Shown one piece after another: positions 1 through 51,530 of a stretch of 62,993 nt of DNA (positions are counted from its first letter, which is position 1; each line of letters opens with the position of its first letter). Below the pieces are notes generated by a model. The model saw nothing but the letters and a program-made list of their open reading frames with translations. It ran no database searches and had not been told where the DNA came from. The translations under genes and the position numbers were made by a program. Source of the DNA: an uncultured Methanosarcinales archaeon (GTDB lineage Archaea; Nanobdellota; Nanobdellia; Woesearchaeales; JACPBV01); assembly GCA_964492935.1 (NCBI GenBank), contig CAZBLF010000003.1:1-62993 (forward strand). The letters are read 5' to 3'.

Positions 1-99
1 AAACGAGGAGTAAGAGACATACAGAAATTAGTATTGGCACCCTTAATTGTGACATCTTTCTTTTTTAGCGGAACCGGTATTTAAACATGCTCATTTCGT

Positions 100-14539: not shown

Positions 14540-14710
14540 TCAGGCTATGTCCCAAGTCTCGCTTCGCTCGGATTAGCAGCTTCGAAATCTTGTTTCTGAT
14601 TTTTGAAGGCTGACATTTCCCGTAGGGACCACCCCTTTGTCAGCCCACTTCTGGATTTAACGGGATTTCGACTATAGGCTGCTAACCTTCACTTGAGGCA
14701 TAGCCTTTCT
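14540..14710. repeat. Family-A structured repeat, long variant (A1)
   Basis: Long imperfect hairpin. Pairs: AGGCTATG/CATAGCCT, TTAGCAGC/GCTGCTAA, TTCGAAATC/GATTTCGA, TGAAGGCTGACA/TGTCAGCC. Centre is CCCGTAGGGACCACCCC. It shares core motifs with A2-A4 and sits between the two divergent TATA boxes (14523-30 and 14722-29). Confidence 0.8.
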
Positions 14711-18761: not shown

Positions 18762-20501
18762 ATGGGAGAAAAAACTCAGCACGTTGCCGATTATAAGAAG
18801 AAAGAGGTAGCTGAGCTTGTAAAGTTAATGGTTGAATCTCCGGTAATCGCAGCTGTTAACATGGATGGTTTGCCGGCTCCACCGTTACAGAAGATGCGAA
18901 GTCAGCTTCGTGATAAGATGACGCTTATTATGAACAAGCGTAGAATTTTTAATATTGCTATTGGTCAGGCAAAAGATAAAAGAAAGGGCATTGAGGAATT
19001 GAGTGCGTACCTCAAAGGAATGCCTGCTTTGATTTTCACTCAGGATAATCCATTTTCATTGTTTAAGGTCTTAAAGAAAAGTAAGAGTCCTGCTCCTGCA
19101 AAAGCTGGACAGGAGGCTCCCTTCGATATTGTTGTTCCGAAAGGACCTACTCCGTTTGCTCCTGGACCGGTTATCGGCGAATTAGGAGCTGCTGGTATCT
19201 CGGCAACGGTTGAGGACGGTAAGGTTGTTATTAAGGAAGATTCGGTTGCAGTTAAAGAAGGTGAAACTGTTGATCAGGCTACTGCTGAAATTCTTTCTCG
19301 TCTATCGGTTCATCCGATGGAGGTTGGGTTGAATATTACTGCTGTCTTAGAGGATGGACAGATTTTCACTCCTAAAGTTCTTGATATTGATGAGGATAAG
19401 TTCCTTGCCGATCTTAGCGGTGCAGCTGCAATGGCTTTCAATCTTGCTTGCGAGGCTGCGTACCCGGTTAAGGAAAACATTGAGCTGCTTATTGGAAAAG
19501 CATTCAAGGGTGCTAAGGCTGTTGCGATTGAGGGCGATATTTTGAGTCCTGATGTAATGGATGAACTGCTTGGCAAGGCTGAACGTGGCGCTCAGGGTGT
19601 AAAATCTGCTGGTAAGATTGAAGTTGGTGCAAAGGTTGCTGAAGAAAAGAAAGAAGAAGCTTCTGAAGAGCCTAAGGAAGAACCTAAGGAAGAGGAAAAG
19701 AAAGAAGATGCTTCTGAAGAGAAAAAGGAAGAGCCTAAGGTAGAAGAAAAGAAAGAAGAGCCTAAGGAAGAACCTGCTCCTGCTGAAGAAAAGAAAGAAG
19801 AAGCTCCTGCTGAAGAAAAGAAAGAGGAACCAAAGGTAGAAGAAGCAAAAGAGGAACCTGCTCCTGAACCGGAAGAACCCAACGAAGAGGAGAAGAAAGA
19901 GGAACCTGCTCCTGAACCTGAAGCTCCTAAAGAAGAAGAAAAGGTAGAAGAAGCAAAAGAAGAACCAACTCCTGAACCTGAAGCTCCTGCTGAACCCGAG
20001 GAACCTAAAGAGGAACCTAAGGTAGAAGAGAAAGTTGAAGAAGAAGTAAAAGAAGAACCTGAAGCTCCTAAAGAAGAGAAACCTGCCGCACAGAAAATCG
20101 AAGATTTTCCTACTTCAGAATCCAAAGATTCAGAAGCAACTGAAGATAAGGTTGCTGACATGGTGGAAAAGACTCAGAATTTTAACAAAGGTGACCGTCC
20201 TAGTGCCGACGATTTGCTCGGTGATGTTGATTCGGCTGAACCGGAAGAACCCAAAGAACCTGAAGCTCCTAAAGAAGAAGAAAAGGTAGAAGAACCTGCT
20301 CCTGCTGAACCTACAGAACCTGAAGCTCCTAAAGAGGAACCGGTAGAGGAAGTAAAAGAAGCAAGCGAACCTTCACCTACTGAGGAATTGGAAGCGAAGA
20401 AGGCTGAAAAGGAAAAGGAACTTGCAAAGGAAAAGGAAAAACATGATGAGGCTGAGCGATTGGCGGCTGATCTTGTTAAGAAGGGGACCTTACGAAAATG
20501 A
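18762..20501 (+). CDS. rplP0: Ribosomal stalk protein uL10 (P0) with a large E/K/P-rich C-terminal expansion
   Basis: N-terminal 300 aa are P0-like (MGEKTQHVADYKKKEVAEL..., PALIFT, GPVIGELGAAGI). About 280 aa of KEEP-type low complexity follow. Start is taken at ATG 18762, just after the L1 stop; the track ORF begins at 18732. Confidence 0.85.
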   Translation: MGEKTQHVADYKKKEVAELVKLMVESPVIAAVNMDGLPAPPLQKMRSQLRDKMTLIMNKRRIFNIAIGQAKDKRKGIEELSAYLKGMPALIFTQDNPFSLFKVLKKSKSPAPAKAGQEAPFDIVVPKGPTPFAPGPVIGELGAAGISATVEDGKVVIKEDSVAVKEGETVDQATAEILSRLSVHPMEVGLNITAVLEDGQIFTPKVLDIDEDKFLADLSGAAAMAFNLACEAAYPVKENIELLIGKAFKGAKAVAIEGDILSPDVMDELLGKAERGAQGVKSAGKIEVGAKVAEEKKEEASEEPKEEPKEEEKKEDASEEKKEEPKVEEKKEEPKEEPAPAEEKKEEAPAEEKKEEPKVEEAKEEPAPEPEEPNEEEKKEEPAPEPEAPKEEEKVEEAKEEPTPEPEAPAEPEEPKEEPKVEEKVEEEVKEEPEAPKEEKPAAQKIEDFPTSESKDSEATEDKVADMVEKTQNFNKGDRPSADDLLGDVDSAEPEEPKEPEAPKEEEKVEEPAPAEPTEPEAPKEEPVEEVKEASEPSPTEELEAKKAEKEKELAKEKEKHDEAERLAADLVKKGTLRK

Positions 20502-22845: not shown

Positions 22846-23550
22846 CTATTGTGGGACGAGGTGTTCAGGCGGAACGACGTCTTCGTCCTTTACTCTGTTA
22901 AATCTTACTTCACTGAAGCTGTGAATGGTTTTATCGTCTACTTTTACATTGTAAATAAAACCGTAGTTTTGGTCCATAATAACCTCGCCGATGTCGGTGT
23001 AGAGTAAGACGCTTTCTTTTCCCTTGTAATCAGATTCACTCTTTAACGTTGCTGTGCTGATTTTTGCCTCCCAGTCGAAGGGAGTTTCGATGTAGACGCT
23101 ATCATAGATGAGATCTTCCATTTTACCCGTTTCTCTTCCACATCGGGAGTAGGTGACGCAGTATTTTTCAGCTGTTTTGAGCTCGGTGTCTAGATATATT
23201 GTTGTTATCTCGGAAACGGGTTCGATTTTTATTTTATTTTCGATTACGTAGATTTTGTAAAAATTGTTCGTGGCAGGATCTTTGTAGGTGTATTCATAGT
23301 TTCTTACTTTTTCGGACTTGTCGAAGATTGCTTGTACACCAGCAGGAAAAGTTGAGGTTTCTTCAACGGTCTCTTCTATAGGTTCTTCAACGATGGGCTC
23401 TTCAATAATCGGTTCCTCGATCTCTACAGGTTCTTCAATGATAATCTCCTCAGTAGTTTCTTCTGAGATTTCTAAGACCGGATCTTCGATAATTACGGAT
23501 TGGCATCCGATTAGGAGGAGTACCGATAGAATTACGAGAATGTTTTTCAT
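22846..23550 (-). CDS. Putative lipoprotein, unknown function
   Basis: 234 aa. LLLIGCQS lipobox-like site and an EEPI/EEPV repeat linker. Confidence 0.5.
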   Translation of the reverse strand: MKNILVILSVLLLIGCQSVIIEDPVLEISEETTEEIIIEEPVEIEEPIIEEPIVEEPIEETVEETSTFPAGVQAIFDKSEKVRNYEYTYKDPATNNFYKIYVIENKIKIEPVSEITTIYLDTELKTAEKYCVTYSRCGRETGKMEDLIYDSVYIETPFDWEAKISTATLKSESDYKGKESVLLYTDIGEVIMDQNYGFIYNVKVDDKTIHSFSEVRFNRVKDEDVVPPEHLVPQ

Positions 23551-23594
23551 GTCTTTTTTTTGATGGGTGAGTATTTAAATGTTTGGATGAGATG

Positions 23595-23727
23595 TATGTG
23601 CATAGCATCACCAGGTCGAAATTCATTGATACCTCAGAATTAAGTGCGTTGCGCGGGGTTGCCCCATCCGGGGACGCAGCACCTTCAGAAGTCAAGAGCA
23701 AGAATTTCGAAGGTGCTATGCACATAC
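23595..23727. mobile_element. Family-A element A2: MITE-like 133-nt palindromic insert with terminal inverted repeats and target-site duplication
   Basis: 14-bp perfect terminal inverted repeat GTATGTGCATAGCA (23594-23607 versus reverse complement of 23714-23727). It is flanked by the direct repeat GATGAGATG (23586-23594 and 23728-23736). The interior is homologous to A1, A3 and A4. Confidence 0.8.
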
Positions 23728-23782
23728 GATGAGATGGAAGGGGCTGAGAAACTATATAAAGGAGGAACTCTCCGTAGGTGAT

Positions 23783-24313
23783 ATGATTATCACTATTAGT
23801 GGGATTGCCGGAAGCGGAAAATCTTCAGTGGCGAAGAAGCTAGCTCAGAAATTAACGTATGCCCATTATTCTGTTGGTGATTTAATGCGAGCGATGGCGA
23901 AGGAGCGAGGTGTCAGTTTGTTGGAACTCGGAAAGTTAGCTGAGAAGGATAAAGCAATCGACCTTGAGCTTGACGAGCGGCAGAAGGCTCTCGGTAAAAA
24001 AGATGATTTTGTTATTGATTCTCGTCTCGGATTTCATTTTTTGAAACAGTCCTTTAAGGTGTTTTTGCAGGTCGAGTTAGAGGTTGCGGCGGATCGTATT
24101 TTGAAGGAAAAACGAGCGCACGAATCGTATGCTGATTTGGCGGATTCGGTTGCGAGTATTAAGAAACGAATAGCATCCGAGGATAAGCGGTATTCTTCTT
24201 ATTACAAGATTGATTATCAAGATAAAACGCACTATGATTTGGTGGTGGATACTACTGATTTGACGGTGGCACAGGTTGTTGGGAAGATTGTAGATGCGGT
24301 AGAGAAGCGTTAA
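23783..24313 (+). CDS. cmk: Cytidylate kinase (archaeal type)
   Basis: MIITISGIAGSGKSSVAKKLA P-loop, length about 176 aa. Start is taken at 23783, which has a TATA box (CTATATAAAG) 23-32 nt upstream. The track start at 23729 lies in the duplicated target of element A2. Confidence 0.75.
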   Translation: MIITISGIAGSGKSSVAKKLAQKLTYAHYSVGDLMRAMAKERGVSLLELGKLAEKDKAIDLELDERQKALGKKDDFVIDSRLGFHFLKQSFKVFLQVELEVAADRILKEKRAHESYADLADSVASIKKRIASEDKRYSSYYKIDYQDKTHYDLVVDTTDLTVAQVVGKIVDAVEKR

Positions 24314-25044: not shown

Positions 25045-25145
25045 AAGCACCTTCGAAATCCTGCTTCAGTTTCCGAGGGCTCTTTGGCCCGGATGGCGCT
25101 ACCCCCACGACGAGCCTGGATTAAGTAATGAATTATTTCGACTTG
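25045..25145. repeat. Family-A repeat, truncated copy (A3)
   Basis: AGCACCTTCGAAATCCTGCTTCAG...CCCGGATGGCGCTACCCCCACGACG...AATTATTTCGAC aligns with A2 and A4. It lacks the outer inverted repeats. Confidence 0.7.
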
Positions 25146-36826: not shown

Positions 36827-36961
36827 GGTATGTGGATAGCGTCTTCGAAATTCTTGCTTCTGACCTTGAAGGTGCTGCGTCCCCGTAGGGGGCAACCCCC
36901 CACGACGCACTTGCTTCTGCGGTATCAAGGAATTTCGACTTTAGGACGCTACGCACATACC
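36827..36961. repeat. Family-A structured repeat (A4)
   Basis: 135 nt. Terminal inverted repeat GGTATGTGGATAGCGTC / GACGCTACGCACATACC. Interior pairs TTCGAAATT...AATTTCGA and GAAGGTGCTGCG...CGACGCACTT. Centre CCCCGTAGGGGGCAACCCCCC. It is about 80% alignable with the reverse complement of A2. No target duplication was seen. Confidence 0.8.
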
Positions 36962-37004
36962 TATTATGCAAAGCCTTAAATAATATTCTTCCTGGAATCA
37001 GTCT

Positions 37005-47973: not shown

Positions 47974-48048
47974 AGTGTAGAAGAAGCAATCTTTTTTTAT
48001 AAAGGTGAGTTATTTTTGAGAAAGAAAAAACGCCACCGCCCGGATTTG

Positions 48049-48136
48049 CAGCGGGAATTAAGAGCTTCGAAACAAGTTTCGAACCCCTCAAACAAAGTTT
48101 GAGATTTCCTGGCCATACAAACCTGCGGTTTGTAGG
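48049..48136. repeat. Family-B element (B2) inside tRNA-Ser fragment copy 1
   Basis: CAGCGGGAATTAAGAGCTTCGAAACAAGTTTCGAACCCCTCAAACAAAGTTTGAGATTTCCTGGCCATACAAACCTGCGGTTTGTAGG. Three internal hairpins: TTCGAAAC/GTTTCGAA, CTCAAAC/GTTTGAG and TACAAACC/GGTTTGTA. Confidence 0.85.
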
Positions 48137-48189
48137 AACCAGGATATCCTTGCGGAAAGTAAAAGAAAAAACGCCACCGCCCGGATTTG

Positions 48190-48277
48190 CAGCGGGAATT
48201 AAGAGCTTCGAAACAAGTTTCGAACCCCTCAAACAAAGTTTGAGATTTCCTGGCCATACAAACCTGCGGTTTGTAGG
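48190..48277. repeat. Family-B element (B3) inside tRNA-Ser fragment copy 2
   Basis: Identical to B2, offset by 141 nt. Confidence 0.85.
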
Positions 48278-48312
48278 AACCAGGATATCCTTGCGGAAAG
48301 TAAAAGAAAAAA

Positions 48313-48432
48313 CGCCACCGCCCGGATTTGAACCAGGATATCCTTGCGGAAAGTGGCTGCCTAGATGCCATACATTTCATTAGAAATTTGGCAATTCAAG
48401 GCCACCGCAATACCGGATTATGCGACAGTGGC
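48313..48432 (-). tRNA. tRNA-Ser(UGA) with 36-nt canonical intron
   Basis: Minus strand: GCCACTG..GTGGC-CT TGA A-[36 nt]-A-GCCAC, long variable arm TTTCCGCAAGGATAT, T-arm CCTGG-TTCAAAT-CCGGG, CGGTGGC, G73. A TTTAAATAA box lies 26-34 nt upstream. Confidence 0.9.
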
Positions 48433-51404: not shown

Positions 51405-51530
51405 GCGAGGGTAGCAAAGCGGTCAAATGCGTGGGACTTAAGCGGAGAGGAGGCCTTGGGATTCTGAGGATTTTCTCCGAAGACATCCCATGGCTTAGTG
51501 CCTTCGGGGGTTCGATTCCCTTCCCTCGCA
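51405..51530 (+). tRNA. tRNA-Leu(UAA) with 42-nt canonical intron
   Basis: GCGAGGG..TGGGA-CT TAA G-[42 nt]-A-TCCCA, 15-nt variable arm TGGCTTAGTGCCTTC, T-arm GGGGG-TTCGATT-CCCTT, CCCTCGC, A73. Confidence 0.9.

Follow-up and report, generated by a model that had tools for sequence, protein, structure and literature searches.

Among described mobile elements, the closest match to the partner element reported here is the ISBst12 group of the IS66 family. A member of this group, ISDge4, encodes a 449-aa transposase and has 14-nt inverted repeats starting with GTG/GTA and an 8-bp direct repeat (PMC12898284). The partner element resembles the ISBst12 group (ISBst12 and ISDge4) in having a transposase of about 440 aa as its only large ORF, inverted repeats of about 12-14 nt that start with GTA, and an 8-bp repeat (PMC12898284). 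It differs in having DPANN archaeal hosts, in carrying an overlapping 45-aa DUF2080 gene, and in inserting at a constant distance, 14 bp, upstream of a TATA box. When set against MITEs derived from IS66 elements, the small MITE that is our subject is not a simple internal deletion of the insertion sequence (IS), with which it has only the terminal 12-13 nt in common.

Insertion at a set distance from a promoter has been described for the TnGBS, ISLre2 and ISKra4 lineage of bacterial Mutator-like DDE elements, whose insertions lie upstream of sigma-A promoters, 15-17 bp from the -35 box (PMC3942029). The archaeal elements are similar in that they keep a fixed distance upstream of the core promoter, avoid genes and leave the promoter intact. 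However, the bacterial lineage is Mutator-like and acts at sigma-A promoters, whereas here the element is of the IS66 family and the promoter is an archaeal BRE/TATA. Moreover, insertion orientation is fixed in TnGBS-type elements, while here both orientations are equally common (11 versus 11). No Mutator-type family was present among the Pfam and NCBIfam matches of the IS66 transposase, and the partner does not belong with TnGBS/ISLre2, whose Mutator-like (p-MULT 3/4) transposases have a signature motif linked to promoter targeting.

In eukaryotes, the Ty3 retrotransposon (as well as Ty1 and the Dictyostelium TRE elements) integrates beside Pol III promoters by way of TFIIIB/TFIIIC, and TFIIIB contains TBP together with Brf1, a homologue of TFB/TFIIB. 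The likeness to Ty3 would be one of concept, namely nucleotide-precise integration at a site bound by TBP/TFB-like factors that may offer a 'safe haven' in a compact genome. Ty3 and its kind are eukaryotic retroelements with an integrase, however, and the likeness to the archaeal elements is offered as a lead.

MITEs themselves are common, and in a prokaryotic census one of the archaeal genomes that carry them most densely is from Woesearchaea, at about 105 MITEs per Mb (PMC11602168). The elements described here are like the census MITEs in that they are small and non-coding, have inverted repeats and target duplications, and are dense in DPANN genomes; they differ in that the passages of the census consulted name neither a partner transposase nor a target position (PMC11602168). 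We found no description of promoter-edge targeting by IS66 elements, or in archaea, in the literature searched. The element at the center of this study, copy A2, is of an ordinary kind; its habit of docking at an archaeal promoter edge is unusual and probably undescribed.

A2 lies in a 62,993-nt stretch of DNA (hereafter the window) that constitutes contig C3 of assembly G000, which comprises 57 contigs and 1.15 Mb at 42% G+C. A preliminary description of the window had presented A2 as a recently transposed, non-autonomous MITE-like element of 133 nt with 14-bp perfect terminal inverted repeats and a 9-bp target duplication. The features of the locus, and of a second copy in the window, are as follows.

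22846..23550, minus strand: gene for a 234-aa protein that has a hydrophobic N-terminus and matched nothing in Pfam; A2 adjoins the core promoter of this gene.
23572..23579, minus strand: TATA box (TTTAAATA on the minus strand) of the divergent 234-aa gene, exactly 6 nt past the left duplication and 29 nt upstream of the ATG at 23550, in line with the genome-wide peak at -30 +/- 1.
23586..23593, no strand: left copy of the target-site duplication, GATGAGAT, 8 bp; all nine identical copies have perfect, different 8-bp duplications.
23594..23727, plus strand: MITE copy A2, non-coding, 134 bp, 100% identical to eight further copies (on C1, C4, C13, C20, C21, C23, C30 and C39).
23594..23607, plus strand: left terminal inverted repeat, GTATGTGCATAGCA; its first 12-13 nt equal both ends of the IS66-family partner.
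23616..23624, plus strand: 5' arm of the inner helix, TCGAAATTC, pairing with 23702-23710 (GAATTTCGA); pairing is kept in relatives by compensatory changes.
23644..23682, plus strand: GC-rich core hairpin, GTGCGTTGCGCGGGGTTGCCCCATCCGGGGACGCAGCAC, the internal part with the best conservation across genera.
23714..23727, minus strand: right terminal inverted repeat (TGCTATGCACATAC on the plus strand).
23728..23735, no strand: right copy of the target-site duplication, GATGAGAT, with a spurious ATG (23729-23731) within it.
23753..23760, plus strand: TATA box of cmk, TATATAAA, 17 nt past the right duplication; the start at 23783 is 30 nt downstream.
23783..24313, plus strand: archaeal-type cytidylate kinase gene cmk (Pfam Cytidylate_kin2, E 3e-22), with start ATG 23783.
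36828..36960, minus strand: older MITE copy of the same family, 84% identical and inverted, with a decayed duplication (4/8), docked at a plus-strand gene that starts near 37003, 6 nt from its TATA box CTTAAATA.

The 9-nt string GATGAGATG is found twice, at 23586-23594 and at 23728-23736. Because the eight other identical copies all begin with G and are flanked by perfect 8-bp duplications, the footprint of A2 is the 8 bp GATGAGAT. The duplication itself thus stands, but the lengths first given for it and for the element change to 8 bp and 134 bp, with the ninth G being the first base of the element. The terminal inverted repeats are 14 nt long and perfect, as initially described. A2 has no coding capacity, as the ORFs that overlap it are chance only, and it folds into a long hairpin (z = -4.9). 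Identical copies with their own duplications, the lack of room for a gene and orthologous regions without the element all bear out its description as non-autonomous and MITE-like.

Searching the whole assembly for the terminal repeat, as had been recommended, returned multiple copies, each with a target duplication. Nine copies were 100% identical over 134 nt, with perfect 8-bp repeats of GAGGGAGG, TATATCTT, ATACTAGG, CAAAAATA, CCAAAACA, TATTCTGA, ATAGCAGA, GATGAGAT and AAATCGCC. Older, diverged copies with 73-84% identity were present on C3, C14, C28 and C32, and the duplications of these older copies were either intact (C32) or decayed (C14, C28 and the copy at 36828). The nine identical and at least four diverged copies are distributed over 12 contigs of G000. 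In several independent marine metagenomes, the 134-nt unit was assembled as a separate unitig at 7-11x the depth of its single-copy flanks, so the identity of the copies is not an artefact of the G000 assembly. A chance repeat was rejected on the strength of nine identical 134-nt copies, nine different perfect 8-bp duplications and a unitig of its own at this depth. We also rejected an IS200/IS605-type palindromic element (PATE or REP, which have no target duplication and have Y1 hairpin ends), as every young copy has a perfect 8-bp duplication.

The genes that neighbor A2 include those for an Rpb7/E'-type RNA polymerase subunit and the archaeal-type cytidylate kinase. Both core promoters around A2 are intact and have been moved 142 bp apart. 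On the left side, the six nucleotides between the duplication and the TATA box (23580-23585) read as a BRE-like caaaca on the minus strand, and the promoter at which A2 is docked is that of the divergent 234-aa gene. The preliminary description had not remarked on this set distance to a TATA box. On the right side, cmk orthologs from ten other genera begin with ATGAT.AT.AC at the equivalent of 23783, and their upstream regions are without the element. These ortholog starts, together with a TATA box at the genome-typical -30 from 23783, place the cmk start at 23783 and not at 23729. The ATG at 23729 is part of the right duplication, a spurious start created by the duplicated target, just as first proposed. 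When A2 and one repeat are removed, 31 nt remain between the divergent TATA boxes and 90 nt between the start codons; the 40-nt promoter spacer initially given was an approximation. The MITE call is in itself routine, and its value for annotation is this shift of the cmk start from 23729 to 23783.

A longer element with the same termini was found through the ends of contigs. Contigs C8, C12 and C56 (at their starts) and C20 (at its end) break 54 nt inside a repeat that has the termini of the MITE and a different interior. Neither tblastn nor blastn detected the IS interior in the G000 bin, which holds only these 54-nt ends. Likewise, tblastn with the IS66 transposase matched nothing in the bin, so the earlier statement that the window contains no transposase holds true for the IS66 type. 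A pattern search for the terminus among relatives located a complete homolog in G002, a genome of the same family, where the element occupies positions 58-1601 of a 1736-nt contig (L028) and contains ORFs of 45 and 442 aa. The 442-aa ORF matched Pfam PF03050 (DDE_Tnp_IS66) with E 1.5e-39 and NCBIfam NF033517 with 255.9 bits against a cutoff of 180; the PF03050 matches to the IS66 transposase had E values of 1.5e-39 and 4.6e-40. The 45-aa accessory ORF, which precedes and overlaps the transposase gene, matched NF033496 (the DUF2080 transposase-associated family; E 5e-12).

An exact DNA search of JGI metagenome contigs with the G000 right-end sequence recovered a contig (L104) that carries a complete 1544-bp IS with both G000 end sequences and with a right flank 100% identical to C8:55-260. 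The G002 and JGI elements together supply the longer, transposase-encoding element with the same ends for which the preliminary description had suggested a search. In L104, the sole fully assembled IS copy from the organism, the transposase frame is split by a 1-nt deletion near codon 84. We treated this frameshift as a mutation or an assembly error. A programmed frameshift was considered and rejected, as the site (GAG AAA GAA AAG) does not have the form of a canonical slippery heptamer. Over the stretch in question, no net indel was seen in the Logan unitigs of X4 and X10, which suggests that intact IS copies probably exist. Logan unitigs of X1, X4, X5 and X10 carried the IS interior, began and ended exactly at the IS ends and contained the end sequence of G000 itself. 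The depth of the IS was 3-5x that of single-copy sequence and, with IS and MITE depths each taken from four to six independent runs, these values suggest that each genome has about 4-5 copies of the IS and 8-11 of the MITE. The C-terminus of the organism's own transposase was not found among the 120 best protein-database homologs, and the nearest relatives of the transposase were from MAGs labelled Nanoarchaeota, Woesearchaeota and Aenigmatarchaeota.

Perfect 8-bp duplications flank the IS copies L101 and L100/L103. With its 8-bp direct repeats and inverted repeats starting with GTA, the partner has hallmarks of IS66 elements. The canonical three-gene IS66 layout (tnpA, tnpB and tnpC) is absent; there is instead one transposase ORF with the 45-aa DUF2080 ORF, an arrangement that groups the partner with the single-transposase (ISBst12-like) elements and sets it apart from canonical IS66. 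The partner is, in short, a 1544-bp IS66-family insertion sequence with a single, ISBst12-like transposase and a DUF2080 accessory gene, and it explains the four contig breaks in the bin.

To describe where the elements sit, we compared 53 MITE copies, namely the 13 of G000 and 40 taken from seven further genomes. For 47 copies the two ends were identified, and 31 insertions were cleanly bounded, with flanking repeats that agree at 6 or more of 8 positions. In 23 of these 31 cleanly bounded insertions, which come from six genomes of different genera, a TATA-like octamer was found 5-7 nt (mode 6) past the duplication. The chance rate, determined at random positions in the non-ORF tenth of G000, was 0.039, giving P = 3e-26. 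All nine young G000 copies obeyed the rule (P 2e-13); the copies in G004 were the exception, with only 1 of 5 doing so. Among the 23 obeying copies, the left and the right side carried the TATA box equally often (11 copies each), one copy had a TATA box on both sides, and both orientations were represented. On one side of nearly every copy, the duplication was followed outward by six bases, nAAAnn, and then by the TATA octamer (TTTATATA, TTTAAATA and TTTATAAA being examples). Full-length IS insertions behaved likewise, with 11-12 of about 14 obeying the rule, suggesting that the transposition machinery, not the MITE cargo, sets it.

The docked TATA boxes belong to outward-facing genes, whose start codons are about 30 nt away. 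The end of the element therefore falls at about -36, and the duplication, at -44 to -37, borders the BRE on its upstream side. About 40% of the 941 long ORFs of G000 have a TATA-like octamer whose first base is at -30 +/- 1 relative to the ATG; this peak marks the octamers as real promoters, and we infer from it that most G000 genes are leaderless and have a standard archaeal core promoter. We also considered whether the TATTTAA... similarity upstream of the two window copies could be a promoter that drives the element; it belongs to the neighbor gene pointing away, and this candidate was rejected.

The fixed position could in principle arise after insertion rather than during it. If the IS66-type transposase moved the MITE essentially at random, purifying selection in a compact genome might leave only those insertions that fell just upstream of a BRE. 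Coding density is high, with only about 10% of positions outside long ORFs, and at C13, C14 and C21 there is almost no free spacer; in addition, the insertions examined are all fixed and have thus already passed selection. Selection of this kind would nevertheless allow any position upstream of the BRE, yet the offsets form a sharp peak at 6 nt and are almost absent at 8-22 nt. The peak also holds where the reconstructed empty site has a free spacer of 30 to more than 100 nt (C30, C23, C4, C32 and 36828), as the element is still found at the promoter edge in these cases. Finally, this spacing, precise to one nucleotide, is seen again and again among the 31 insertions, which come from six genomes of different genera, and for the full-length IS. 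We consider selection acting on random insertion to be an unlikely explanation, and we think it probable that the fixed position stems from the transposition machinery and is more than the outcome of selection. Aimed insertion and very strong selection are separable only with unselected new insertions. The machinery may read the BRE/TATA sequence or the promoter as bent by TBP/TFB, possibly via the DUF2080 protein, and the promoter edge may provide a 'safe landing' where, as in this genome, intergenic regions are very short.

A more specific version of aimed insertion is tentative, and on balance we lean slightly against it. Here, the DPANN IS66 transposase, perhaps guided by the near-invariant 45-aa DUF2080 protein, would use the TBP/TFB-bound, bent BRE/TATA as its landmark and cut with an 8-bp stagger at -44 to -37 of leaderless genes. 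As MITE-like elements of G039, G013 and G006 that have the core but unrelated termini sit there too, the promoter edge may be a general integration hot spot in these archaea, and the core hairpin may have a role there. Read in this way, what Ty3 does at Pol III promoters and TnGBS at sigma-A promoters would have an archaeal counterpart in a DNA transposon.

For A2 itself, we propose that the DDE transposase of the 1544-bp IS66-family IS, from the same marine DPANN archaeon (of Nanoarchaeota/Woesearchaeota type), would act in trans. The transposase would recognize the terminal 12-13 nt common to MITE and IS, GTATGTGCATAG[C], and join the element to its target with an 8-bp stagger. Repair of the stagger would produce the 8-bp duplication GATGAGAT, which stops 6 nt short of the TATA box, where the BRE begins on its upstream side. 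The proposal fits the mobilization in trans put forward in the preliminary description, given an autonomous element that shares the termini and encodes a predicted IS66-family transposase. The termini and the duplication length, and these alone, point to the IS66 transposase as the enzyme that would mobilize the MITE.

A different transposase that also makes an 8-bp stagger could have moved the MITE, in which case the 12-13 nt shared with the IS would be coincidental or convergent. The similarity between MITE and IS is indeed confined to these termini, and the GC-rich core is absent from the IS, which means that the core is not a transposase-binding site copied from it. MITE-like elements with the same core and quite different termini in other genomes, and the frameshift in the assembled IS copy, would also suit this explanation. 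Against it, the termini GTATGTGCATAG are invariant in IS66-type copies of many DPANN genomes and in the MITEs of six genera, and MITE and IS co-occur in the organism with the same 8-bp duplication and the same TATA +6 target. In addition, the exact 13-nt terminus occurs in the 1.15-Mb genome only at MITE ends and at the four IS contig ends. A different transposase is thus very improbable, and we conclude with considerable confidence that A2 is a real MITE that was moved in trans by the IS66-type IS of the same organism and docked near a TATA box.

The MITE family is present in 15 of 61 related genomes, including members of other families of the order, often with 8 to 15 copies. The termini GTATGTGCATAGC are conserved and are accompanied by clean 8-bp duplications in G001, G004, G006, G008 and G009; the same termini also occur in G048, and the 14-nt inverted repeat is conserved in copies from six genera. 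The congener G001 has a subfamily whose members are 167-169 nt long and contain, close to the right end, an additional stretch of about 35 nt. Inside the element, the GC-rich hairpin (23644-23682) and the inner helix (23616-23624 with 23702-23710) are best conserved, while the stretches between them vary freely. Four stem positions hold their pairing via two-sided changes (alignment columns 25/158 and 29/154). The same core also occurs in the MITE-like elements with different termini, found in G039, G013 and G006, which have 8-9-bp duplications and, as judged by eye, a TATA box 6-7 nt past one duplication. A purely selfish, neutral MITE does not explain the conserved core and the stem compensation, and the core might serve a separate purpose as a hairpin in RNA or DNA. 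Rfam 15 gave no match at gathering scores over the whole window. The element was in no RNA run, but as the organism itself was undetected in four metatranscriptome runs, this result bears on transcription in neither direction.

That the repeats are structured ncRNA genes or parts of them, or a regulatory hairpin kept beside promoters for a host function with the inverted repeat as its closing stem, is scarcely credible: long stable hairpins (z -4.9 and -6.8), the compensatory stem changes, a core conserved across genera and across elements with different termini, and a TATA-like box 14-22 nt upstream of one end in both window copies would agree with it, but every young copy has a different perfect 8-bp duplication, nine identical copies occupy unrelated loci, a transposase-bearing element has the same termini, orthologous sites are without the element, no Rfam family matched 23560-23760 even at E <= 10, and the upstream TATA boxes serve genes pointing away from the element.

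The age of the MITE insertions was judged from their flanks. No empty-site joint was found for A2 in eight metagenome runs from several studies, sampled in 2014-2025 (X1, X9, X10, X11, X13, X14, X16 and X19), nor for the C30 copy in four deep runs (X4, X5, X8 and X16). As the flanks were joined in none of these runs, both insertions appear to be fixed in the sampled populations, and the 'recent' transposition of the preliminary description holds in a relative sense only. Relatives do have orthologous regions without the element, but their spacers have diverged and they are not exact empty sites. Joined queries of seven other insertion sites against G001 gave one usable orthologous region, that of the C39 copy, in which both flanking genes and both TATA boxes are kept and the MITE is absent, with the spacer diverged here as well. 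G001 (a bin that is 80% complete) is without cmk, so the A2 site cannot be compared within the genus. The MITE-free C39 site in G001 and the fixed insertions place the burst of nine copies after the split of the two species and before the spread of the present population. We infer that the burst was recent relative to the older copies with 73-84% identity, yet old enough for the A2 and C30 insertions to have become fixed in the sampled populations. No polymorphic insertion was observed at A2 (8 runs) or at the C30 copy (4 runs), and ongoing activity is not supported.

The wider interest of these elements lies in a DPANN family of DDE transposons that inserts with nucleotide precision at the upstream BRE/TATA edge. 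If the landmark is the TBP/TFB-DNA complex, the insertions would be a natural probe of promoter occupancy in uncultured organisms and a route to promoter annotation in their genomes, and the system may be a tool for promoter-adjacent insertion without disruption. Such a landmark would also show how transposons can persist in 1-Mb genomes that are nearly free of spare DNA.

Comparison of A2, the MITE in the window, with MITE-like elements of other genomes indicated that its GC-rich core hairpin and the GGTCAAAACTC/GAGTTTTGA helix are common to four further loci, which differ among themselves at the ends:

MITE-like elements sharing the A2-type core
L009, contig C13 of G039: terminus differing from that of A2, GGCTCTGTAGAAAGT
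L008, contig C24 of G013: terminus differing from that of A2, GGTCGCATTGAAAA
L011, contig C15 of G006: terminus differing from that of A2, GTATGAATTAAGCTCC
L013, contig C42 of G043: terminus a near-variant of that of A2, GTATGTAAATAGCA

All four elements have duplications of 8-9 bp, and by eye a TATA box lies 6-7 nt past one duplication in L009, L008, and L011. Judging from these sequences, elements with differing ends appear to share the core as a module. Within the window, reading of the sequence at 14540-14710 and 25045-25145, the hairpin copies A1 and A3 of the preliminary description, indicated that both are remoter relatives of the A2 hairpin family; the TTCGAAAT/ATTTCGA helix is present in these regions and the GTATGTGC termini are absent.

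G001, the congener of the source genome G000, carries a subfamily of the MITE of 167-169 nt (loci L031-L042) with an additional segment of about 35 nt (GGTTGCTTTAGCAGCCTACGAACGCTAGTGACTAT) ahead of the right terminus, and at L031 two copies are arranged head to tail. The copies in genome G004 (L043-L048) have perfect 8-bp duplications, yet a TATA box at +6 was found in only one of five. This departure from the TATA rule, by which the duplication ends about 6 nt from the TATA box of the neighboring gene, may mean either that promoters differ in appearance in that genus or that targeting is relaxed there.

Window positions 1-55 are identical to positions 1199-1253 of the JGI metagenome contig L104, beyond which L104 diverges from the window; 44 nt further on it contains a complete copy of the IS66-type partner element, and the beginning of contig C8 comes after that copy. 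The match is either a 55-nt repeat or the mark of a structural variant or IS insertion adjoining the window start. Besides this IS, two more repeat families were found at contig breaks in G000, and these are probably other insertion sequences left unbinned:

Repeat families at G000 contig ends
Family 1, ends of C2, C7, C15, C26, and C37: common sequence AAGTGATTACTTTGACGATTCCACTATGGCTTTAGCCTAGTGGTAGTTCAAAA
Family 2, ends of C19, C26, C27, C41, C44, C46, and C49: common sequence GTTATTTAGCGTTTATCACTCTGCTAAAGCAGAGTACGGAATTCTCCTTTAAA

Two Rfam tRNA matches in the window, neither reported by ARAGORN, probably represent tRNA genes that contain an intron or are interrupted:

Putative tRNA genes
48313-48432, reverse strand: tRNA match, 120 nt
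51405-51530, forward strand: tRNA match, 126 nt

The first adjoins a perfect 141-nt tandem duplication (48021-48302). The repeat search of the window is dominated by a long Lys/Glu/Pro-rich coding stretch of KEEPK-type repeats at 19620-20450.

Some loci hold just the final ~290 nt of the IS and are truncated remnants. In the JGI contigs L105 and L108, this tail (transposase residues 351-442) is fused to unrelated DNA, and a unitig break at position 1383 of L028, the G002 contig with a complete homologue, likewise marks loci with only the IS tail. At L108, a TATA-like box is still 6 nt away. In the complete copies, a gene for a 45-aa DUF2080 accessory protein overlaps the transposase start:

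DUF2080 protein gene
L104, 1403-1540
L028, 163-300

Between these two copies the transposases are 79% identical and the DUF2080 proteins differ at one of 45 residues. Conservation this strong suggests an important function for the small protein, perhaps the selection of targets.
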